Shown here in pieces: positions 2,291 through 25,001 of a stretch of DNA of 26,009 bases. A model generated the notes under the pieces. It was given only the letters and a program-made list of their open reading frames with translations. It did no database searches and was not told the origin of the DNA. The translations under genes and the position numbers were made by a program. The first letter of the stretch is position 1; each line of letters starts with the position of its first letter. Origin of the DNA: a virus (Duplodnaviria > Heunggongvirae > Uroviricota > Caudoviricetes); the IMG/VR virus record IMGVR_UViG_2695420653_000006, positions 1 through 26,009 of that record. One strand, 5' to 3'.

Positions 2291-2910
2291 GACTCGAAAG
2301 CGTAGCTAAATTTCATTCGCCAAAAAGCCCGATGATGAGTGACTCACCACGGGCCACGGCTTCTGACTCTCTTTCCGGTACTGATGTGATGGCTGCTATG
2401 GGGATGGCGCAATCACAAGCCGGATTCGGCATGGCTGCATTCTGTGGTAAGCACGAACTCAGCCAGAACGACAAACAAAAGGCTATCAACTATCTGATGC
2501 AATTTGCACACAAGGTATCGGGGAAATACCGTGGTGTGGCAAAGCTCGAAGGAAATACTAAGGCAAAGGTACTGCAAGTGCTCGCAACATTCGCTTATGC
2601 GGATTATTGCCGTAGTGCCGCGACGCCGGGCGCAAGATGCAGAGATTGCCACGGTACAGGCCGTGCGGTTGATATAGCAAAAACAGAGCAGTGGGGGAGA
2701 GTTGTCGAGAAAGAGTGCGGAAGATGCAAAGGCGTCGGCTATTCAAGAATGCCAGCAAGCGCCGCATATCGCGCTGTAACGATGCTAATCCCAAACCTTA
2801 CTCAACCCACCTGGTCACGCACTGTTAAGCCTCTGTATGACGCTCTGGTGGTGCAATGCCACAAAGAAGAGTCAATCGCAGACAACATTTTGAATGCGGT
2901 CACACGTTAG
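2287..2910 (+). CDS. Q: Late gene antiterminator Q
   Basis: 207-aa translation ([83 protein letters not shown]...CRDCHGTGR...CGRCKGVGY) matches lambda Q including the zinc-finger cysteines; followed by PR'. Confidence 0.9.
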
Positions 2911-2952
2911 CAGCATGATTGCCACGGATGGCAACATATTAACGGCATGATA

Positions 2953-2981
2953 TTGACTTTTTGAATAAAGTTGGGTAAATT
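2953..2981 (+). promoter_or_regulatory. Late promoter PR' with overlapping qut site
   Basis: -35 TTGACT (2953-2958), 17-bp spacer, -10 TAAATT (2976-2981), immediately downstream of Q; sequence context essentially as in lambda PR'. Confidence 0.75.
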
Positions 2982-2987
2982 TAACCC

Positions 2988-3182
2988 AACGATGGGTTAA
3001 TTCGCTCGTTGTGGTAGTGAGATAAAAAGAGGCGGCGCTTACTACCGATTCCGCCTAGTTGGTCACTTCGACGCATCTTCTGGAACTCCAACCATCGCAG
3101 GCTGAGAGGTCTGCAAAATGCAATCCCGAAACAGTTCGCAGGTAATAGTTAGAGCCTGCACAACGGTTTCGGGATTTTTTAT
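2988..3182 (+). ncRNA. 6S RNA (short constitutive PR' transcript ending at tR')
   Basis: About 194 nt from the predicted PR' start to the tR' U-tract; lambda-like sequence throughout. Transcript ends are inferred, not measured. Confidence 0.6.
3125..3182 (+). terminator. tR' intrinsic terminator
   Basis: Outer inverted repeat CCCGAAAC (3125-3132) / GTTTCGGG (3166-3173) with inner GCAGG/CCTGC stem, followed by ATTTTTTAT. Confidence 0.7.
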
Positions 3183-3550
3183 ATCTGCACAACAGGTAAG
3201 AGCATTAAAGAACTGGCAAAGAGCTTAACGGTCTGCGAAAGCATTTCTTAGTGGCACAACTGGCCGGTACAACTGAGTGCTCTTTCCGGTGTGGTGAATG
3301 CGCAGGCTGATGCGCGCAGGAGAGCTTCGGAAGAACAAGGTGCCTGTATACAAGCCGGAGATCAGCGCCGGCCACCACAGCCAAATCCACCCAGAGCAAA
3401 ACCGTTGTTCATCATTACCATTCCCTCAGTATTTTGGGCTACAACCCTCATCCCATTTTTTAAAGCGTACTTCTACCAAGAACCAGACCTAACCAACTCA
3501 TTGCTGACACTCTGTGGATACGGTTGTCTAGTGCGCTTTAAAAAAGAAAA

Positions 3551-16697: not shown

Positions 16698-18086
16698 ATG
16701 GCTACTTGGCAAGGAACAAATGGCGGATTGTTGGCTGGTATCGGTGGCGTCAACTCAAACGCTCCGAGCGTAAATGACATCGGCAATACGCTTCAGCTTA
16801 TCAGGCAGAACAATGATATTGAGCGTTCAGGCGCTAACAATGTTGGGCTGACTGCTTTGCAAGGCCTTTCAGGTATTGCGGGGGTGTTTCAGCAGACAAA
16901 GCAGGCTCAGCGGCAGAAAGAATTTCAGCAGGCATACGCTAATGCTTATGCGTCTGGTGATCGCGGTGCTTTGCGTCAGTTGGCTACTCAATATCCAGAC
17001 CAGATTGAATCCGTTCGTAAAGGCATGGGATTCATTGATGAAGACCAGCGTAATTCTATCGGCACCTTAGCGGCTGGCGCACGCCTTGCGTCATCGTCTC
17101 CAGAAGCAATGCAATCATGGCTGCAAAACAACGCCAAGGAACTGACTCGCGTCGGTGTTGACCCTAACAGCGTTGCTCAGATGTATCAGCAGAATCCTTC
17201 AGGATTTGGTGAGTTTGTTGATCACCTTGGAATGGCTGCTCTTGGTCCGATTGATTACTTCAATGTTCAGGACAAGATGGCTGGTCGTGAGATTGATCGC
17301 GGAAAACTTGCAGAGACAATCCGCAGCAATCAGGCTGGCGAGGCGCTAACAGCACGAGGACAGAACATCACGATGCGCGGTCAGGACTTATCTGCTTCTA
17401 CTGCGCGACGCGGGCAGGATTTGGCAATGCAGCGAGCGTCAACAAGAGGAACTGCTGGTAATGATGAGCGTACAGTTCAGTTATCAGATGGCAGAACTGT
17501 AACGGTAGGCGGGAAACTTCACGGCGCTGGGGCAAATGCGTTCTACGAAGGCATCGACAACGAGGGGAATATGGTTCGCGTTCCTGCCAGTTCAATCGCA
17601 TCGCCTGCAACATCGTCTGCATCAGCACAAAACTATGCCATGAAGAAGGATATCGACGCGATCGCAAATGCAGATGCTTCTGCTCTCGATTTCATGACAG
17701 GAATGACCGGCGGCGCAGGTAACCCGGCAATTGGTGCTGATGTTCGCAGCCGATTAACAGGAAAAGAGCAGCGCCAGTTATATAACTCAGCACAACGTAT
17801 TCAGGGAAGAATGCAGAATCAGGGCGTGGCGGCAGCAAGGGACATGGGTGCCAGTGGTATTAACACCGTTGCAGAAGCGAAGATGTATTTTCAGGGGATG
17901 CCGCAGGTTGACTATTCAAGCCCGGAGGCTATGCAGCAGTCGATTCGTGAGATTCAGGAATACACCAACAATTATAACCAACAATATAACGTTAATGTTG
18001 GTAAATCTCAGCGGCAGCAATCTCAACCTGCACAGGTATCACAGCCAGCAGCCAGCAGTAACTTTTCTTCACTATGGGGTGATTAA
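16698..18086 (+). CDS. Ejection (injection) protein, P22 gp20-like
   Basis: 462 aa; order gp7-gp20-gp16 conserved; SD AAGGGG upstream. Confidence 0.8.
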
Positions 18087-20083
18087 TGGCTAAAGCATGG
18101 AAAGATGTTATCTCCTCTCCACAGTATCAGGCGTTAGCACCAGAACAAAAAGCGCAGGCTCAGGAGCAATACTTCAATGAAGTCGTTGCCCCGCAAGCCG
18201 GAGAAAATGCAGAGCAGGCTAAGCAAGCTTTCTATGCTGCCTATCCATTGCCATCTGTGCAGCCAGTGGAGACACAACAACCAGTAGCACAGCAACAACC
18301 ACAGCAAAGTGGATTTATGTCTGATCTTGGTGAAGCAGTAAAAGAGACTGGTCGCGGACTGGTGCAGGCTGGCGTGAACGTGGCAAACATACCTGCATCA
18401 GTTGCCGATGCTGTAACAAGCGCGGCGGCTTGGGCTGGCGGTAAACTTGGCATTGGCGATGGGACATATCAACCAGCGCCACGAGTAACAACGCAGGGAT
18501 TAGAGCAGGACTTTGGCCTTCAGCAAGGTGCGCTGACTCCACAAACGACAGAGGGAAGGGTGTTTGCTGAAGCATTGCCTTACCTCACTCCTGCTGGCGT
18601 TGAGAGAGCGGCGGTACAGGCGCCAACACTTGCTGGTCGAATTGCTCAGGGGGCAACTCGCCTTCTAGCAGAAAACGCAGTTGGATCACTTGCTGCAAAT
18701 AGTGCGAAAGATGATGCGGAAGCACTCGCCACCGATTTAGGCGTTGGTGTACTTGCTGGCGGTGCTATTAACGCTTCCGGACGTGGATTAGGTGCTGCTT
18801 ATCGTGGCGTTCGTGGTGCTATCGCGCCAGAAGCGCAGCAGGCTATCAGATTTGCAGAGCGTGAAGGAGTTCCTCTGCACACCACAGACCTGTTACAACC
18901 AACTTCCCGCGTCGGAAAAATGGCGCAGACTACAGCAGAAAATATCCCTCTGGCTGGCACAAGCGGAATGAGATCAACGCAACAGGAAGCGAGAAGCCAG
19001 TTGGTGCAGAGATTTGCTGATAAATTCGGTGAGTATGATCCAGCTGTTGTTATTGACAGCCTTAAAGCGAAAACATCAGGAATTCGTCGTGCCGCCGGTA
19101 ATCGACTGGAGCAGGTACAGAATGCAATGGCAGGAATCAACATTCAACCTGCCAGAGCAATTCAGCAGATAGATACTGAGATATCTAACCTGCAGAAGCT
19201 TGGTAAGGTTGCTGATAACGAGACTATTTCAAAACTTCAGTCCTATCGTGATGAGCTTGTTCGCAATGCTAGTCCTGATGGTCCGGTAAATCTGGATTTG
19301 AAGCAATTAAGCGATCTGCGCAGCCAGTTCAGAATGGACGTGAAGGGGGAACGACCAGTGTTACCAAACCGTTCCGATGCTGCCATTCAGCGCGTTTACA
19401 AGGCGATGACAGACGATATCAATGGTGCCATTGGTCAGAATCTTGGCAACGATACTCTCCGTAAATATCAGCAGGCCAATGCCGTCTACGCTGACGAAGC
19501 GGCGAAACTAAAGAATACCAGGCTGAAGAATGTTCTCATGAAAGGCGACCTGACGCCGGAAGTTGTCAACAACATGCTATTCAGCAAGAACAAATCGGAA
19601 ATTAAGACGCTGTATAACTCAGTTGGTCGTGTTGGCAGGGCGCAAATGCGCAATGGCATCATTGGAAAGGCGATGGAGAAATCAGGTGGTTCCCCTGATC
19701 AGTTCCTTCGACAGCTTAACATCCTGCAAAACCAGACTGGCATCACATTTAAGGGGCAGGACGCTGCTTATCTGAAAGGATTGAAAAACTACCTGCAATC
19801 CACGCAGCAGGCTGCAAAAGCGGCAGTAACAACACCAACAGGGCAGCAAACCATCCCGTTCATTATCGGGTATGGGACAGCAATGAACCCGGCGACAACT
19901 GGCGCAGCGGTAAGCTACGGACTTCTTACTCGCGCCTATGAGAGCGAGCCATTCAGAAATGCAATGCTCCGAATGGCAAACACCCAACGCGGATCAACAG
20001 CGTTTGAGAAAGCCATGCAGCAGGCGCAAAAGGCCATTAACGCCCTGACTCAAGGTGCCAAGTCTGATGCGTTGTCAGAATAG
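18086..20083 (+). CDS. Ejection (injection) protein, P22 gp16-like
   Basis: 665 aa; last gene of the + strand ejection-protein trio; start overlaps previous stop (TAATG). Confidence 0.8.
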   Translation: MAKAWKDVISSPQYQALAPEQKAQAQEQYFNEVVAPQAGENAEQAKQAFYAAYPLPSVQPVETQQPVAQQQPQQSGFMSDLGEAVKETGRGLVQAGVNVANIPASVADAVTSAAAWAGGKLGIGDGTYQPAPRVTTQGLEQDFGLQQGALTPQTTEGRVFAEALPYLTPAGVERAAVQAPTLAGRIAQGATRLLAENAVGSLAANSAKDDAEALATDLGVGVLAGGAINASGRGLGAAYRGVRGAIAPEAQQAIRFAEREGVPLHTTDLLQPTSRVGKMAQTTAENIPLAGTSGMRSTQQEARSQLVQRFADKFGEYDPAVVIDSLKAKTSGIRRAAGNRLEQVQNAMAGINIQPARAIQQIDTEISNLQKLGKVADNETISKLQSYRDELVRNASPDGPVNLDLKQLSDLRSQFRMDVKGERPVLPNRSDAAIQRVYKAMTDDINGAIGQNLGNDTLRKYQQANAVYADEAAKLKNTRLKNVLMKGDLTPEVVNNMLFSKNKSEIKTLYNSVGRVGRAQMRNGIIGKAMEKSGGSPDQFLRQLNILQNQTGITFKGQDAAYLKGLKNYLQSTQQAAKAAVTTPTGQQTIPFIIGYGTAMNPATTGAAVSYGLLTRAYESEPFRNAMLRMANTQRGSTAFEKAMQQAQKAINALTQGAKSDALSE

Positions 20084-20173
20084 CCTTTCAAACACCAGGA
20101 ACGTGCAAAAACCAAATATGTAGAACGCGAGGTTTATCGTATTCCTCTGCATAGGCGATACCTTTGCTGATTG

Positions 20174-20659
20174 TTATCTGATGTTACTGCTACTGTTGCA
20201 TGTGACTGTATTTCCAAACCCTGAATTGCAGTTTGTGTAAGTGTCAACTCGTGTTGGATAGGGTTGAGTTATAACAGGCTGTCTCGCTTTTTGCTCGATC
20301 GCTTGCATTGTGTTTACAGCCTGATAATTCAATAAAGCCTGCTGGAATGCTTGGCTTTGTGCTATTTGTTGTGCTTGTTCTTGGCTTTGTAATTGAACAT
20401 AAAGATTCTGAAGCTCAAGTCTTGCCTGTGCGTCACTTATCTTGCCTTCATCGACACCTTGCCCGAGCATCTTTGCAGCAAGGACATACAGTTTAGGTGT
20501 TGGTGCTGATGCCATGCGTGAGTCGTTCTTCACACTGGCATCAAGGCAATTAGCCATATCGCTAAGCTTTTGATAGCGTTGTTCGCAACTTGCTTGATAG
20601 TCACTTACTTTTGCGCATCCAACCAGCAGAAGCGGGATAATTAACAGTGATTTTTTCAT
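20174..20659 (-). CDS. Predicted lipoprotein (161 aa), candidate superinfection-exclusion/moron gene in the sieA position
   Basis: ATG at 20659 preceded by AAGGAGAG; signal peptide with lipobox MKKSLLIIPLLLVGC; Q-rich helical middle; C-terminal Cys pair (TNCNSGFGNTVTC). The upstream in-frame start at 20695 has no RBS. No family recognised. Confidence 0.65.
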   Translation of the reverse strand: MKKSLLIIPLLLVGCAKVSDYQASCEQRYQKLSDMANCLDASVKNDSRMASAPTPKLYVLAAKMLGQGVDEGKISDAQARLELQNLYVQLQSQEQAQQIAQSQAFQQALLNYQAVNTMQAIEQKARQPVITQPYPTRVDTYTNCNSGFGNTVTCNSSSNIR

Positions 20660-20729
20660 ATGGTTAACTCTCCTTAGTTTTTCACAGGATATCATGAAGG
20701 CAATGCCATTTTAGCCGGAAGCTAGATTT

Positions 20730-20999
20730 CTATGTTTCCTTTTTATTATTGCTATACATGGTCTTAAGCGTTTCAAAAACCATTTTCTTAACCATATCAG
20801 ATTGTTGTTCTGCCATACGCTCTGCATCGTCAATGTAAACTGATACAGAGCTTTGTTTAGCCAATGATTCTTCAATCGCTGCAATTATCTCTGAGTTCAG
20901 CGACCTGTTATTCATCTTCGCACGCTGTTTAATTTTCGCGTGAAGTTCATGCGGAAGTCTCAAGTGAAACTGCGCCTCGTCGTATTTGCTGTACATCAT
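20730..20999 (-). CDS. mnt: Mnt-like ribbon-helix-helix repressor (Arc/MetJ superfamily)
   Basis: Translation from Met at 20999 (MMYSKYDEAQFHLRLPHELHAKIKQRAKMNNRSLNSEIIAAIEESLAKQSSVSVYIDDAERMAEQQSDMVKKMVFETLKTMY...) aligns with P22 Mnt (…NGRSMNSELLQIVQDAL…DAERLADEQSELVKKMVFDTLK…) from memory; GAGG SD upstream. Confidence 0.8.
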   Translation of the reverse strand: MMYSKYDEAQFHLRLPHELHAKIKQRAKMNNRSLNSEIIAAIEESLAKQSSVSVYIDDAERMAEQQSDMVKKMVFETLKTMYSNNKKET

Positions 21000-21127
21000 T
21001 GATGCCTCACCAGTTGGGTGGAATGGCATCGTAACCTACTGGATAAATACTCAATAGTACCATTTCGGTATGCAATCACATCATGGTTGCATCATATCAT
21101 TCGTCTGGAGCAATGAAATGTCAGATA

Positions 21128-21628
21128 TCACCTACTCAACAGATGGTCAGCAACCATGTTTGCTGCCTTATAAGCTATAGCAGCTTCATCAATGGTGTTG
21201 AATCTCCCAAGGGTTATGTTTTTACCTGAGACATTTATCTGAGCTTGCCATTGATTTCTGGCTTGACAGAAAGTTACCCCCTTGATTCCAGCATTGCTAT
21301 TTCGAGGTCCGACATTTAATGCATTTACGACTCTGCTGACATCCCTAAGGTTTGAGATTGCGTTATTTCTTCTGTTTCTATCAATGTGGTCAATCTCTTG
21401 TTTTGGCCATTCGCCATATACATACAGCCAGGCAAGTCTATGTGCAAAATATCTTACGCCATCAATATTAATTGCGTTATATCCATAAGAAATTGTGCCA
21501 GCAACTTTCCCAACAGCACCTCTGGCGCTTAATTTCTTTTTCCAAGTGAAAATTCCTGTTTCTTTATTGTAATCGAGAACCTCCATAAGGCGCTCCCGAG
21601 TTACTACCTCGTGACGTCTCTTACTCAT
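21128..21628 (-). CDS. HNH endonuclease with AP2-type DNA-binding domain (free-standing homing-endonuclease-like)
   Basis: Translation from ATG 21628 (SD GGAG): HNH motif region [18 protein letters not shown] followed by an AP2-like domain ([40 protein letters not shown]); AT-rich codon usage. Confidence 0.75.
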
Positions 21629-21641
21629 TATTTTCTCCGGA

Positions 21642-23486
21642 ATGTTTATTATGCCAGAACAATTATACAACGTTGTTGTTTCACAACCAAGTCAGTTATT
21701 TACTTTAGCTCGCTCGTTTAAAGCAAATGCCAATGGCAAAATTTATATCGGTAAAATTGACACTGACCCTGTAAATCCTGAAAACCAGATTCAGGTTTAT
21801 GTGGAAAACGAAGACGGCTCTCATGTTCCTGTATCGCAACCAATCATCATTAATGCTGCTGGTTACCCTGTATATAACGGACAGATTGCCAAGTTCGTAA
21901 CTGTGCAAGGCCATTCTATGGCTGTTTATGATGCATATGGTGCGCAGCAGTTCTATTTTCCGAATGTGTTAAAATATGACCCAGATCAGGCATATTATCG
22001 TGCTGAAAAAGACATTAAAAGATCTGGCGCTATCGAAACAAAAATACAAGACGCTATTAATTCATCCGTCTCAGGTCAGACGGTGTTAACAATTAATGAA
22101 GATGAGGTTGTTGATTCTATTAACAATGATTATGGTGTGGAAATCGATGCTAGAAGGGGAAGAGTTTTTAATAGAGATGGTGTCCAGTTATCAACATACA
22201 CAAATCCGAGGAATAGATTTGTTATAGGTCAAGAGTATTTAAATTATGTTACAAATAAACTTATTAACGGTGACGGAGTAACTTCAGATAAAAAAACATA
22301 TATTTTATGGTCTGGAGACTCCACTATAGTTGGTGTAAACTCTGAGTCATGGCCTCCAGCCACTATCGCTGATTTTTATGCAAAAAGGTATGGAATTATT
22401 GATGTAAAAAATACATCGTTAGGTCATTCAGGTAAAACTCTATACGAATGGGGTAATTGGTATATTGATCAGGAATGGTCTGTTTTTTCTGCTGCTGATT
22501 TGATTGTTTTACGATGGGGAATTAACGATCCATATTATGGTTATACATTGGATCAAGTAAAAGACGCATTAGATAGAGGTCTTTCCAAGTTACGAAATAA
22601 CAAATCAGTTTCCCAGCAATCAATTATTATCATGTCCCCAAACTCAACATCAGACACACCAAACGGACGTGATGAAAAATGGTATGAACAGTTAACAGCC
22701 GTGCTTAGAGCTAAAGCTAAAAAATATAAGTGCATGTTTTTTGACACTTACGGTATGTGGCAGGATTCCAGAGGCGCAGCAGGTAACTGGCTTGATAATC
22801 CATATGGGGATGGTCGCGGAATTCATCCAAATTATGTTTTTAGCGCCCAAATTCACCATGAGTTACTTGATTACATATATGGCCCATGCAAAGTAGTAAA
22901 TGGAAGTTCTAATTTATTTTCTAACAATGGTTCATCTTTGCAATTTGTTGGTAGTTCATATCCACCAAATACGTTTCATATGGGGACTTCATGGTGGAGA
23001 ACAAATCCTGATGATTCTTCTTGGCCTCTTGATGGTGTTATTCAGGTCGATAGATTTGTTGATGGAGTAGTGTTGCAAAAATTATATGGATATATATCTG
23101 AAAGTAGCAGAGTGTGTTTTACTCGCATAGGAAGGATAAGTGAGAACACATGGTCACAGTGGCGTGGTAAGCAATATGAAATATCTGGCCTGTTACAAAA
23201 TGGATGGGTTATAGGAGAATCAAGGAAAGGGACATACCAAAAATCTCTGGATGGTATTATAAATATAAATTGCGTTTTAACTGGAGGGGCAACTTCTGTT
23301 GGAACGGTTATAATGAATCTTCCTTCAGGGTTCAGGCCAGAAAAAGATATATCTTATATACCTTGTGGAACAAACAATGCTATAGCACTGATCAATATTT
23401 CGGCTAACGGAAATGTTACAATTCAATCATTTCCGTCAGGTTCTGTTCTTACTATAGCAACATCATTCCCATCAATGGTTGATTGA
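21642..23486 (+). CDS. Tailspike protein: P22-type head-binding N-domain fused to an SGNH/GDSL-hydrolase (esterase) receptor-binding domain
   Basis: Residues about 20-115 match the conserved P22 gp9 head-binding domain ([38 protein letters not shown]...[15 protein letters not shown]...NVLKYDPDQ). Downstream, SGNH blocks in canonical order: GDS ([11 protein letters not shown], Ser227 codon near 22320), G block (LGHSG), GxND (LRWGINDP), DxxH (DGRGIHPN). Strongly AT-rich after the N-domain. Confidence 0.85.
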
Positions 23487-23549
23487 TAATATTTATTATT
23501 TTGGTTCTTGTATTACAAATAAATACACCATAACAATAAACATAAGAAG

Positions 23550-23583
23550 CACAAAGCTTTGCACTGGATTGCAAGGCTTTGTG
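23550..23583. terminator. Long hairpin between convergent tailspike and integrase genes (putative bidirectional terminator)
   Basis: 14-bp stem (one G-U) CACAAAGCTTTGCA / TGCAAGGCTTTGTG with 6-nt loop; T-rich flank on the minus-strand side. Confidence 0.5.
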
Positions 23584-23607
23584 TCATTCGATAGTTGTTA
23601 ATGTCGC

Positions 23608-24926: not shown

Positions 24927-25001
24927 TGGTGTCCCCTGCAGGAATCGAACCTGCAATTAGCCCTTAGGAGGGGCTCGTTATATCCATTTAACTAAGAGGA
25001 C
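24927..25001 (-). tRNA. argW: tRNA-Arg (anticodon CCU)
   Basis: Minus-strand sequence GTCCTCTTAGTTAAATGGATATAACGAGCCCCTCCTAAGGGCTAATTGCAGGTTCGATTCCTGCAGGGGACACCA folds as a cloverleaf: 7-bp acceptor stem, T-loop GGTTCGATTCC, anticodon loop CCUCCUAAG with CCU at 34-36, encoded CCA. Confidence 0.92.

Follow-up and report, generated by a model that had tools for sequence, protein, structure and literature searches.

A P22-like prophage locus read as a mosaic of separately inherited modules, with an HNH cassette predicted to displace the tailspike start

Gene content and context of the locus

In an argW P22-like prophage, three genes coding for a lipoprotein, an orphan Mnt-like repressor and an HNH endonuclease lie on the minus strand between the gene 16 homologue and the tailspike gene (Table 1), which raises the question of whether they act together as one island or belong to separate elements. 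In the window, meaning the whole 26,009-nucleotide stretch of DNA that was analysed, homologues of Inj_translocase and gene 16 stand upstream of the trio and a Head_binding tailspike stands downstream, followed by intS, tRNA-Arg(CCT) and yfdC. [quoted passage not shown] Its three gene identities were likewise upheld, with the open reading frames found where they had been placed, Pfam and PDB matches for Mnt, an HNH_3 match for the endonuclease and a lipobox for the lipoprotein, as was its statement that the genes oppose late transcription, all three being encoded on the minus strand. No homologue of arc or ant was found by tblastn in the whole window, in agreement with the absence claimed earlier; of mnt, arc and ant only mnt is present, and the locus is therefore not a complete immI (mnt-arc-ant-sar) region. 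Compared with its VSe13 orthologue, the lipoprotein gene gave a dN of 0.020 and a dS of 0.48 (dN/dS about 0.04), while the HNH gene gave a pN of 0.12 and a pS of 0.78 against an 80%-identical relative (pN/pS about 0.16) and mnt a pN/pS of about 0.3. Judged from sequence, the three are real genes on which purifying selection acts.

A region of this kind was described in 2008 as the "ant moron", a segment in rapid flux of which sixteen genomes yielded ten types (Villafane et al. 2008, PMC2629481). The present locus resembles it in lying between the homologues of genes 16 and 9, in being variable and dispensable for assembly, and in running partly against the late operon. Some of the published versions are reduced to mnt plus one unknown gene (ST64T, ST104 and Para1; PMC2629481), and the E. 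coli B7A prophage, one of the sequence sources given for Figure 3 of that paper, carries the lipoprotein and mnt pair. The locus differs from the published types in that arc, ant, sar and sieA are all missing, the unknown gene is the lipoprotein gene, and an HNH cassette undescribed in that paper has been added at the tailspike edge. The reading preferred here, with a probability of about 0.65, is that three modules, each inherited separately, form a mosaic within the ant moron of a P22-like prophage and that the segment is not a functional island, with the roles of the lipoprotein, Mnt and HNH protein as proposed below. For annotation, the locus would accordingly be treated as a known hypervariable moron plus a selfish element and not as a new defence island. 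On sequence comparison, the main new point is the HNH cassette, which interrupts the tailspike gene after codon 5 and is predicted to supply it with a new start.

Table 1. Features of the locus, with positions counted from the first letter of the window
Feature	Position	Strand	Details or basis
Lipoprotein gene	20174..20659	-	161 aa; directly downstream of and antisense to the gene 16 homologue
Orphan mnt gene	20730..20999	-	88-89 aa; N-terminal ribbon-helix-helix and C-terminal Mnt tetramerisation helix
TTGAGT, candidate counterpart of the P-mnt -35	21049..21054	-	P22-type -35 (TTGAGA) inferred from alignment
Putative Mnt operator AGTACCATTTCGGTATG	21056..21072		Arms TACC / GGTA, 5-bp centre; adjoins the CTCAATAG motif
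Orphaned original tailspike start	21107..21180	+	SD GGAG (21107-21110), ATG 21118, codons S-D-I-T
HNH endonuclease gene	21128..21628	-	MSKRRHEV..., 166 aa, SD GGAG
HNH cassette, 536 bp	21133..21668	-	Insert relative to HNH-less tailspike alleles (BLAST and alignment)
Tailspike gene with replacement N-terminus	21651..23486	+	Translations of HNH-positive and HNH-negative alleles
Candidate HNH promoter	21662..21690	-	-35 TTGGTT (21690-21685), 17-nt spacer, -10 TATAAT (21667-21662); read by eye
"Type B" block, 61 bp of tailspike coding sequence	21669..21729	+	Adjoins the cassette; multi-locus alignment

The lipoprotein gene and its possible roles

The mechanical reading frame of the lipoprotein gene spans 20174-20695, and its likely start is the ATG at 20659 (MKKSLL...), which has TAAGGAG ahead of it. 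The signal peptide ends in the lipobox MKKSLLIIPLLLVG/C (LLVG/C) with Ala at +2, and is followed by a helical domain, a Gln-rich helix and a C-terminal Cys-x9-Cys hairpin; C15, C25, C38 and C154 are invariant in 30 homologues, and Gly14 is conserved in at least 90% of them. As the residue at +2 determines the membrane sorting of lipoproteins (the Lol rule), Ala at this position would send the protein to the outer membrane, and the product is probably anchored there, facing the periplasm. Past the signal peptide the highest 19-residue Kyte-Doolittle mean was 0.47, with no later hydrophobic segment. The sole strong PHROG match was phrog_6067, listed as "unknown function" (E = 1.6e-110), and no family was matched in Pfam, NCBIfam or PADLOC. 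An AlphaFold2 model built from 30 homologues reached a mediocre pLDDT of 62, and Foldseek found no match to it below E = 0.2 in PDB or BFVD, a weak result given that model. A profile search of 1.8 billion representatives placed the distant relatives in 243 clusters at 50% identity; the N-terminal domain belongs to this broad unnamed superfamily, some distant members of which differ in length and C-terminal architecture. None of ten distant relatives scanned contained a Pfam family, and the three that were traced all lay on contigs of about 1 kb.

The close family was found directly after the ejection-protein genes of P22-like elements in every phage or prophage locus examined. Gally, VSe13, Proteus phage Brookers and a Yersinia ruckeri prophage all have it there, and the slot after gene 16 is held by this lipoprotein across Escherichia, Proteus and Yersinia. 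In P22 the gene in this slot is sieA. SieA blocks DNA delivery through the gp16/gp20 conduit (Leavitt et al. 2024, PMC10883804) and was found in only 22 of 66 P22-like phages (PMC10883804), and other genes must therefore fill the slot elsewhere. Unlike SieA, which is an inner-membrane protein with predicted transmembrane helices (types A-C), the lipoprotein has a signal peptide only, and hydropathy and the PHROG match set the two apart.

Small phage lipoproteins made in lysogens or early in infection, such as Ltp of TP-J34, Llp of T5 and Cor of phi80 and N15, block phage DNA entry or the receptor. The lipoprotein was likened to these as a working analogy, the resemblance being one of kind only; neither the family searches nor Foldseek of the pLDDT 62 model detected similarity to Cor, Llp, Ltp or lambda Bor. 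Superinfection exclusion by the lipoprotein is plausible, and the best guess is that it takes the functional place of SieA and acts in the periplasm to hinder P22-like phages entering the cell. Given the pLDDT of the model and the empty fold searches, this idea draws on position and analogy. As a gene without an assigned function in the place expected of an exclusion gene, it is a cheap and well-defined candidate for plating tests.

The preliminary description had also named the three genes as candidates for lysogen-expressed functions, and published transcript data support such expression for the lipoprotein gene of a related prophage. In the LF82 RNA-seq data, GALLYPH_13 of prophage Gally, its 97.5%-identical orthologue, stood at 70 in LB against a prophage median of 15.6, and in other conditions at log2 7.9-10.3 against 2.5-4.1 for the adjacent injection genes (PMC9928086, S1). 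The Gally orphan mnt was at background in LB and rose about 40-fold in macrophages (PMC9928086, S1 and S4 tables). The lipoprotein gene may be described as a moron gene with a strong ribosome-binding site, whose transcription in the prophage probably does not depend on the late operon. The family is widespread in P22-like prophages of the Enterobacterales and is transcribed in a lysogen, although the Gally study classed that prophage as moron-less, with GALLYPH_13 falling just under its 5-fold cut-off (PMC9928086).

The same data allow another role, in which the lipoprotein is not directed against phages but acts as a moron for host fitness, namely as an envelope or stress factor like lambda Bor that serves growth in the host or in macrophages. 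The Gally orthologue was upregulated in macrophages (log2FC 2.55, q = 4.7e-27) and, relative to LB, in the "B1" and "B6" bacterial culture samples, and membership of so broad a superfamily with varied architectures would suit such a role. However, deletion of the whole Gally prophage left the survival of LF82 in macrophages unchanged (PMC9928086), and the constant place of the close family in the sieA slot (PMC10883804), in all loci examined, also speaks against it; a host-fitness role is possible, if on balance unlikely. A more far-reaching proposal, tentative and rather doubtful, holds that the lipoprotein founds a new class of prophage exclusion and that, independently, the HNH cassette drives the exchange of tailspike genes. 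An outer-membrane-anchored, disulfide-stabilised helical lipoprotein would reach into the periplasm and stop the ejection proteins of P22-like phages entering the cell from building their DNA conduit, replacing the unrelated inner-membrane protein SieA, and its two alternative C-terminal modules would set the specificity for the target. The cassette, for its part, would break DNA at the one conserved end of the tailspike genes; if true, a selfish HNH element would promote host-range shuffling in temperate phages.

The HNH cassette and the tailspike start

The HNH gene had been described as simply lying between its neighbours; this view has to be corrected, as base-for-base comparison with HNH-less alleles places the cassette inside the tailspike frame, after codon 5. 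The boundaries are exact, the insert being 0 bp in locus L004, in Gally and in many others, and the L004 allele reads ...GGAGCAATAAAATGTCAGATATCACC followed directly by GCAAATGTT... at the junction. The cassette contains the HNH gene, its SD, the -10 of a candidate promoter and new tailspike start codons. The stop codon of the HNH gene (TCA on the plus strand, 21128-21130) falls within the retained tailspike codons 4-5. Past the junction at 21132/21133, the original start continues as a reading frame of 20 codons, while the tailspike begins as MPEQLY (or MFIMPEQLY from the ATG at 21642) instead of the MSDITA of the HNH-negative allele. Its protein consists of Head_binding (Pfam E = 1.9e-64) followed by a GDSL/SGNH esterase domain (Lipase_GDSL_2, E = 2.6e-14). 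In the proposed course of events, a 536-bp homing endonuclease cassette entered the tailspike gene after codon 5, stranding the old SD, ATG and five codons, and brought with it a new start codon and six N-terminal residues. It would thereby be a compact example of how an element can enter an essential gene without killing its host, by bringing a replacement start. Tailspike genes of HNH-bearing prophages risk being mis-annotated, as the true start is displaced while a short orphan reading frame keeps the old ribosome-binding site.

The same cassette, with the same junctions and tailspike start, is present in Escherichia phage vB_EcoP_Kapi1 (MT813197), whose Kapi1_066 is 100% identical to the HNH protein. 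Kapi1 differs at its left neighbour, which is a complete mnt-arc-ant module without a lipoprotein of the phrog_6067 family. Kapi1 was isolated as a temperate phage (PMC8787464), which implies that the rearranged tailspike works. No discussion of the HNH gene was found in the published Kapi1 papers, no paper linking Kapi1 with HNH emerged from a literature search, and a search for HNH genes at the tailspike start of P22-like phages found no description.

In its sequence, the HNH protein matches Pfam HNH_3 (PF13392) with 59.7 bits (cut-off 24.8) over residues 60-103, with the motif DH...N...NN...N, and matches phrog_99 (E = 7e-63) and the PADLOC "homing endonuclease" (E = 2e-7). It belongs to a large family of phage HNH homing endonucleases with 656 phage records, often annotated as such. 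The label HNH-AP2 given earlier stands as to HNH, while the AP2-like C-terminal domain (PF00847, E = 3.6e-6) is likely but not secure, since its 27.6 bits lie below the gathering score of 33.3. A promoter for the HNH gene is probably included in the cassette, on the strand opposite the new tailspike codons. The candidate lies opposite codons Q-L-Y and the linked 61-bp block, and both hexamers are kept in the diverged version of Escherichia sp. ESNIH1, which has an 80%-identical HNH in the same architecture; its -35 matches the consensus at only 3 of 6 positions, and it is absent from the list of a consensus scan that required at least 4 of 6 per hexamer.

The cassette was 98.9-100% identical in 12 other loci in which the right flank was 90-98% identical and the receptor-binding domains were unrelated, and it was found with at least six tailspike lengths. 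Its left junction, ACC/TAC, is identical on two unrelated left flanks (mnt-type and ant-type), and an unrelated HNH (42% identity over 92 aa) occupies the same tailspike junction. Presence or absence at one exact site, near-identity on unrelated flanks and the second HNH at the junction together argue for the mobility of the cassette. Of the 61 positions of the adjoining type B block, 27 depart from the common allele, mostly synonymously, against 7 of 179 in the next stretch, and the block is essentially invariant in all HNH1-bearing loci, HNH1 being the present gene. Among 739 matching E. coli genomes, the full type B segment was found in exactly the 15 with HNH1, plus the HNH-less GF43, and the HNH-less locus L059 has amino-acid variants similar to those of the block. 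It may therefore be a mere flank of the donor lineage. The first reading, in which the recoding immunises the target site, was set aside on finding the block without HNH in GF43, and immunity is now only presumed.

These features fit a free-standing homing endonuclease, with cleavage being predicted. The enzyme would nick or cut the HNH-less tailspike 5' ends of co-resident P22-like genomes, and the cassette would then be copied in repair along with the 61-bp variant block beside it, taken as an uncleavable form of the target. Within this host-range gene, no stretch other than that of the insertion site is conserved. As with mob and seg genes, the free-standing HNH/GIY-YIG homing endonucleases of T4-like phages (Edgell et al. 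2010, PMC2988022), and mobE of Aeh1 (PMC3045599), a small endonuclease gene occurs here without an intron or intein. The fixed-site presence or absence, the linked flank polymorphism and the swapping of different endonucleases at one site recall the T4-like free-standing endonucleases, and a host gene that is broken yet functional recalls phage homing-endonuclease insertions (PMC2988022, PMC3045599), mobE splitting nrdA in Aeh1 (PMC3045599). In T4, however, free-standing endonucleases are mostly intergenic and several borrow upstream promoters (PMC2988022), whereas here a temperate P22-like phage harbours the element, a structural gene is interrupted within its first codons, the cassette supplies a replacement start and N-terminus, and the HNH gene is antisense to the operon of its target.

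It is improbable that the HNH protein is instead a domesticated or defensive nuclease that works for the phage, such as by destroying the DNA of competitors, or else a relic without activity. Cutting rival P22-like genomes at the conserved tailspike site would itself be interference, the gene opposes the late operon as prophage-expressed genes do, it was not among the undetected genes in Kapi1 lysogen RNA-seq, and the copy in strain EC06 is a pseudogene. A protein that is not mobile would, however, not explain the presence or absence of the cassette at an exact site, its near-identity across unrelated flanks or the use of the junction by another HNH. T4 endonuclease marker exclusion provides a precedent in which mobile and interference roles are not mutually exclusive (PMC2988022).

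Orphan mnt, minus-strand transcription and assortment of the genes

The mechanical reading frame of mnt spans 20730-21029, with a likely start at 20999 or 20996 (MMYSKY...) after GGTGAGG, and the RefSeq annotation in relatives is the 88-aa form. The product matches Pfam Arc (PF03869, 56 bits, cut-off 20.4) and, over residues 68-92, Repressor_Mnt (PF11423, 45.8 bits, cut-off 20.9), as well as residues 3-75 of P22 Mnt (PDB 1mnt, E = 2.4e-19) and its C-terminal tetramerisation coiled coil (PDB 1qey, E = 1.5e-6). It resembles P22 Mnt in its ribbon-helix-helix and tetramerisation helix, its leftward gene and a palindrome at the equivalent place beside CTCAATAG. It differs in an N-terminal arm longer by four or five residues, in having no ant to control, in a recognition strand that reads Q-F-H-L-R where that of P22 reads H-F-N-F-R, and in a putative operator of the form TACC-N5-GGTA as against GGTCCAC-C-GTGGACC in P22. 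In aligned intergenic regions, the TACC-N5-GGTA palindrome (21058-21070) falls at the place of O-mnt in P22-type immI, and palindrome and recognition strand change together across five allele types. The putative operator occurs as a single copy in the window, where 0.04 would be expected by chance with up to three mismatches, and it is kept in VSe13-type loci despite different flanks. Mnt is therefore predicted to retain an allele-specific operator at 21056-21072. An inverted repeat at 21070-21092 was not conserved in related operator regions.

The gene would be a remnant of an immI region that lost arc and ant, its product still pairing with an allele-specific operator of its own in the interval between the gene and the old tailspike start. 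Mnt tetramers bound there would set the expression of mnt itself and block rightward transcription from the position of P-ant, the hexamers of which have decayed, towards the tailspike. Trans-immunity, by which the orphan Mnt would repress ant of incoming phages, was considered and rejected, as no locus was found that pairs this Mnt and operator type with an intact ant: six loci that appeared to combine the operator type with ant carry a different mnt, only 33% identical, and locus L124 has an ant fragment only. Deletion of mnt from Gally gave no macrophage-survival phenotype (PMC9928086), and the Kapi1 mnt, a different allele, was undetectable in lysogens by RNA-seq.

Neither the consensus scan nor the alignment revealed a convincing promoter for mnt or the lipoprotein gene. 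Across the region, the scan gave 2 promoter-like sites against 4.4 in shuffled sequence. No convincing -10 for mnt lies 16-18 nt from TTGAGT, with TACGAT found at 15 nt, and near mnt the scan instead gives CTGACA-17-AATGAT at 21124-21096. A scan for minus-strand terminators was negative through to gene 16, and RNA folding downstream of the lipoprotein gene gave z = -0.7.

The lack of a terminator, together with the candidate promoter in the first tailspike codons, would also allow the minus strand to act partly or wholly through a long RNA antisense to the tailspike 5' and ejection-gene 3' ends, which would confer immunity to closely related phages in the manner of STnc6030 from Salmonella prophage BTP1. 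In lysogens of BTP1, an RNA of more than 700 nt antisense to the tailspike and DNA-injection genes confers immunity to BTP1 (Owen et al. 2020, PMC7067206), and the present locus lies at the same junction in a P22-like prophage, the lysogen transcription and immunity being those of BTP1. There, however, no reading frame exceeds 60 aa, whereas the strand here encodes three conserved proteins under purifying selection; the RNA would overlap the tailspike mRNA by no more than about 25 nt, and the promoter is only a candidate, all of which makes an antisense RNA very improbable.

The distributions of the genes point to three independent modules. Each of the three genes is already present in deposited phage genomes. 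Among 5,426 complete E. coli genomes, about 450 matched the lipoprotein and mnt stretch, a pair also present in phages Gally, 720R6, VSe13 and Brookers, while HNH1 was found in 15, and in phage Kapi1. In 80 loci, the lipoprotein gene had at least eight different right-hand contexts. Of 55 IMG/VR loci, picked by the presence of the putative Mnt operator, 32 had mnt only, 15 the lipoprotein and mnt, four mnt and HNH1, two mnt and HNH2, one the lipoprotein, mnt and HNH2, and one ant.

These counts bear on the earlier description of the trio as an island and an unfamiliar gene combination; a single unit or a jointly acting set found no support, as the parts assort independently and the locus had already been described as the ant moron. 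A prophage island selected and transcribed as one, such as a defence or exclusion unit, is highly improbable: the three genes share a strand on which no intrinsic terminator was detected between them, so that a transcript from the HNH promoter could run through mnt and the lipoprotein gene, and the latter two are 17 bp apart and therefore probably an operon in Brookers, but each of the three is found apart from the other two in many genomes and varied combinations, so that the distributions already largely refute such an island. The full triple with HNH1 was seen in only one of the 5,426 genomes, strain EC06, where the HNH is broken, and in none of the 55 IMG/VR loci, near the one or so expected under independence. 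HNH1, furthermore, stays at the tailspike 5' end whatever its left neighbour, including loci in which ant takes the place of mnt.

The prophage setting and three minus-strand genes

A P22-like (Lederbergvirus-type) prophage is inserted at argW, and the window covers its late half, in which the ejection genes are followed in order by the tailspike gene (Head_binding domain), intS, tRNA-Arg(CCT) and yfdC. As set out in the preliminary description, three minus-strand ORFs were found between the stop codon of the gene-16 homologue (20083) and the tailspike gene, and a search for arc or ant homologues across the window recovered neither, in agreement with their reported absence. The second ORF encodes a product of 88-89 aa that matched Pfam Arc and Repressor_Mnt, each above cut-off, and aligned with P22 Mnt (PDB 1mnt) at E = 2.4e-19. 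The product of the third is a 166-aa HNH_3 endonuclease matching phrog_99 and the PADLOC 'homing endonuclease' model, with an AP2-like C-terminal domain that scored below the Pfam gathering threshold. Purifying selection was seen on all three genes when compared with diverged relatives and, together with the ORFs and domain matches, this confirmed the observation of three real genes.

In the tailspike, a head-binding domain of P22 type is joined to a GDSL/SGNH esterase domain at residues about 222-394, which suggests an enzyme that destroys its receptor by deacetylation and not a glycosidase. The gap between the tailspike gene and intS is just 121 bp; relatives EC06 and VE-T9 carry an acyltransferase gene there, and the window prophage has no O-antigen-modification gene at this spot.

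Positions of features in the window
Feature	Position	Strand	Remark
Inj_translocase gene	16698-18086		Ejection-protein homologue
Gene-16 homologue	18086-20083		Ejection-protein group
Lipoprotein gene	20174-20659	minus	
Segment encoding lipoprotein residues about 125-161	20174-20290	minus	C-terminal 30 residues lie within
mnt	20730-20999	minus	
Putative Mnt operator	21056-21072		
Inverted repeat	21070-21092		Beside the operator
Stranded tailspike SD	from 21107		
20-codon ORF	21118-21180		Opened by the stranded tailspike SD and ATG; antisense to HNH 3' end
HNH gene	21128-21628	minus	
HNH cassette	21133-21668		536 bp
Tailspike gene	21651-23486		
Candidate HNH promoter -10	21667-21662	minus	Perfect TATAAT; opposite new codons Q-L-Y
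Type B block	21669-21729		61 bp
Candidate HNH promoter -35	21690-21685	minus	TTGGTT; 17 nt upstream of TATAAT
Tailspike-intS gap	23487-23607		
tRNA-Arg(CCT)	24927-25001		

Assortment of the three genes

The stretch 20085-21132, comprising the lipoprotein gene, mnt and the mnt-tailspike spacer, was matched in about 450 of 5,426 complete E. coli genomes, and the tailspike gene comes immediately after it in the majority of the top matches listed. The HNH gene was present in 15 complete E. coli genomes (identity of at least 98.8%), and all three genes occurred together in EC06 alone, where HNH is annotated as a pseudogene. To the left of HNH lies either a window-type mnt (VE-T9, EC06) or a complete mnt-arc-ant (Kapi1, Combat2C1, GB089, AR_0118); to its right there is always a tailspike gene. 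What remains of HNH in EC06 (compared locus L003, 6954-7412) is a pseudogene plus a fragment of 45 aa, and terminase and DNA-transfer genes of that prophage are also truncated.

Two independent IMG/VR samples were drawn, one of 55 complete loci chosen via the Mnt operator and one of 80 loci chosen via the lipoprotein. The former contained mnt alone (32 loci), lipoprotein and mnt (15), mnt and HNH (4), mnt and a different HNH (2), lipoprotein, mnt and a different HNH (1) and an ant-like gene (1). In the latter, at least eight distinct arrangements were seen on the right side of the lipoprotein gene, among them mnt genes of three types, full immI modules, a lack of any mnt and either HNH. The exact triple of the window was absent from both samples (55 + 80 loci); about 1 in 55 loci would be expected to hold it under free assortment.

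A 2008 study distinguished ten types of the 'ant moron', the variable region between the P22 gene 16 and gene 9 homologues, among sixteen genomes and called it 'in a state of rapid flux'; in ST64T, ST104 and Para1 all that is left is mnt plus a single gene of unknown function (PMC2629481). The lipoprotein-mnt pair of the window is present in the E. coli B7A prophage (genome match H46), one of the sequence sources for Figure 3 of that study. Each gene is also found in deposited phages: the lipoprotein in Gally, vB_EcoP-720R6, VSe13 and Proteus phage Brookers, the window-type mnt in Sf101, IME10 and others, and HNH in Kapi1. The region is a known hypervariable moron, and its content in the window is three modules, not one island. 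The earlier interpretation is partly right, on where the genes lie, on how they are oriented and on likely expression from the prophage (of the lipoprotein at least), but wrong in treating the genes as one unit and as a significant undescribed combination. The main points of value are a testable lipoprotein and an endonuclease cassette that replaces the start of a host-range gene at its conserved end.

The lipoprotein and the orphan mnt

The lipoprotein gene is preceded by TAAGGAG and encodes 161 aa beginning with MKKSLLIIPLLLVG directly before C. The product matched phrog_6067 ('unknown function', E = 1.6e-110) and no family in Pfam, NCBIfam or PADLOC. Its homologues form 94 clusters at 90% identity, with no informative name and no Pfam domain, and belong to Enterobacterales wherever a source organism is named, ranging from Escherichia to Yersinia, Serratia, Pectobacterium, Morganella and Providencia. 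Conservation extends to the Cys of the lipobox, to Cys25 and Cys38 as a pair, and to a further Cys pair at the C-terminus. A profile search added 243 more distant clusters sharing this pattern, and no Pfam family was matched in the ten of these that were scanned. Two versions of the C-terminal 30 residues exist (...QPYPTRVDTYTNCNSGFGNTVTCNSSSNIR or ...PPVQLQNNNVTTNCTTYGNQTRCQSY), both of which occur on otherwise similar N-terminal domains; they resemble a specificity module that has been swapped.

The lipoprotein gene lies directly after and antisense to the gene-16 homologue in all phage and prophage loci examined, among them Proteus phage Brookers and a prophage of Yersinia ruckeri where no other gene stands between gene 16 and the tailspike gene. 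It pairs with two very different gene-16 types. In 22 of 66 P22-like phages this slot is occupied by SieA, which acts on the gp16/gp20 conduit (PMC10883804). The lipoprotein differs in having no transmembrane segment beyond its signal peptide, and is therefore not SieA-like. Its predicted structure, of moderate confidence only, is helical with a terminal hairpin, and no structural relatives of this model were detected.

The Gally orthologue, GALLYPH_13, is 97.5% identical to the lipoprotein of the window. Among Gally transcripts in LB it ranks second, behind the repressor (scoring 70 versus a median of 15.6, slightly below the authors' moron cut-off), and it exceeds the neighbouring injection genes 16- to 100-fold in other conditions (PMC9928086 S1). 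These levels show the orthologue to be a prophage-expressed gene and make such expression, as had been proposed for the region, likely for the lipoprotein gene of the window. The Gally orphan mnt (a different allele) was at background in LB. It rose about 40-fold in macrophages together with the tailspike, but not with the other late genes, and survival was unaffected when it was deleted (PMC9928086). No mnt expression was detectable in Kapi1 lysogens (PMC12922286). Gally (L001, 3395-3814) also has a plus-strand gene absent from the window, GALLYPH_14, between lipoprotein and mnt, whose transcription in LF82 under non-LB conditions was above that of the lipoprotein (log2 9.4-11).

The lipoprotein is best described as an uncharacterised but common moron. 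Given its position and the exclusion lipoproteins of other phages, our preferred guess is that it would block phage entry, to which we assign a probability of roughly one in three; an envelope or host-fitness function is about equally likely. A minor alternative is that the minus strand yields a long antisense RNA giving immunity, as in the P22-like prophage BTP1, whose lysogens make a long immunity-conferring RNA that runs antisense to the 5' end of the tailspike and the 3' end of the injection gene (PMC7067206). The search for terminators found none on the minus strand of the region, so similar read-through transcripts are possible, but the minus strand of the window is protein-coding.

Mnt specificity resides in the N-terminal recognition strand. 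When the mnt upstream regions of nine loci were aligned, P22-type modules showed TTGACA...TATATT CTCAATAGGTCCACCGTGGACCTAT (P-ant and O-mnt), and other mnt alleles had a different palindrome at the equivalent place after CTCAATA. The palindrome varies together with the recognition strand: H-F-N-F-R with GGTCCAC-C-GTGGACC, Q-F-N-L-R (Gally) with AGACCACAGTGGTCT, and Q-F-H-L-R (window, VSe13) with GTACCATTT(C/A)GGTAT. This putative operator is present as a single copy in the window and is kept where flanks have diverged. The P-ant hexamers have decayed, and no convincing candidate for a P-mnt -10 was found in the mnt upstream region of the window. The inverted repeat ATGCAATCA / TGGTTGCAT occurs in the E. 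coli-type spacer and is missing from VSe13-type spacers.

Some prophages possess both a complete unrelated mnt-arc-ant and a window-type mnt with its operator beside the tailspike gene. Two mnt genes per moron were seen in IMG/VR locus L126 (3500-6300) and also in L029, L084 and L119, the distant mnt accompanying arc and antirepressor-like genes and the Q-F-H-L-R-type mnt and operator adjoining the tailspike gene, which suggests a separate role for the tailspike-proximal pair. In locus L124 (about 700-860), an ant 3' fragment 94% identical to Combat2C1 ant lies within about 40 bp after the operator and is a visible deletion scar en route to an orphan mnt. The two-mnt prophages and this fragment argue that the orphan mnt arose by deletion while the repressor-operator pair was maintained. 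As no intact ant paired with this operator type was found among the IMG/VR loci examined, a local role, namely autoregulation and the blocking of rightward transcription into the tailspike gene, is most economical. Both the Mnt repressor and the reduced context in which it is found here were known before.

The HNH cassette at the tailspike start

Base-level comparison with an HNH-less relative, E. coli ZF8-1, showed the two sequences to be collinear to 21132 and again from 21699. The HNH-less tailspike gene starts ...GGAGCAATAAA ATG TCA GAT ATC ACC GCA AAT GTT GTG GTA AGC ATG CCT... (product MSDITANVVVSMPSQLFTM). In the window, the left junction reads ...GGAGCAATGAA ATG TCA GAT ATC ACC / TAC TCA ACA..., followed by the opposite-strand HNH gene, and the right junction ...GGAATGTTTATT ATG CCA GAA CAA TTA TAC / AAC GTT GTT GTT TCA CAA CCA.... 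These junctions show that the ribosome-binding site which first served the tailspike gene is stranded together with the old ATG and five opening codons, the present start lying 533 bp downstream; the cassette supplies a new start and six new residues, and the N-terminus now begins M(FI).... Unusually, the element interrupts an essential structural gene within its first codons and then repairs the damage itself. The arrangement of HNH, cassette and tailspike is identical in Kapi1, reported as isolated as a temperate phage (PMC8787464), which implies that the altered tailspike functions.

The HNH stop codon falls within retained tailspike codons 4-5, and the palindrome TCCGGA is common to the HNH SD and the probable tailspike SD. 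The stranded 20-codon ORF would probably be translated from late transcripts. TTGGTT-17-TATAAT is a plausible HNH promoter, and was not listed by a consensus scan requiring at least 4/6 matches per hexamer.

Twelve other loci carry the cassette at 98.9-100% identity, each with ACC/TAC as its left junction. The 30 bp to its left are of two native types (mnt-type or ant-type flank). To the right, identity over 232 bp is 90-98%, and the tailspikes have unrelated receptor-binding parts, that of the window being shared by none of the twelve. The protein family has 656 phage records at E <= 1e-20, from T5-like and other phages, many annotated as homing endonucleases. Taken together, and by the criteria reviewed in PMC2988022, HNH bears the marks of a free-standing homing endonuclease gene, for which we infer cleavage, a target site and homing from sequence. 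It is a further member of a known selfish-element class in an insertion architecture that is apparently unreported.

The type B block is essentially invariant in all HNH-bearing loci. Of its 61 positions, 27 differ from the common allele, mostly synonymously, against 7 of 179 in the next stretch. A tailspike 5' end was matched in 739 E. coli genomes, of which exactly the 15 with HNH have the full segment. GF43 (L010, 2481-2600) carries the block without HNH, behind a normal MTDSINA start, and could be either ancestral to the HNH-bearing allele or derived by loss of the endonuclease. Because this allele exists, the block may be mere donor-lineage flank and not a resistance determinant. MLI104K1 and MLI104K2 (genome matches H86/H87) show only a partial match to the block; the tailspike gene of MLI104K1 is immediately preceded by an IS1.

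A second HNH (169 aa; 42% identical over 92 aa, the core) has the identical left junction in M160133 (L005, 4043-4660) and three IMG/VR loci (L053, L078, L109). It brings its own replacement tailspike start, MTDSINA, and the type B block is absent, which suggests that different endonucleases have invaded one site repeatedly. Escherichia sp. ESNIH1 (L135, about 2430-3460) has an HNH 80% identical to that of the window, directly after gene 16 with neither mnt nor lipoprotein present, and shows the same orphan ATG, reverse HNH and MFIMPEQLY tailspike, with both candidate-promoter hexamers retained. The association of this HNH lineage with the tailspike start is therefore old.
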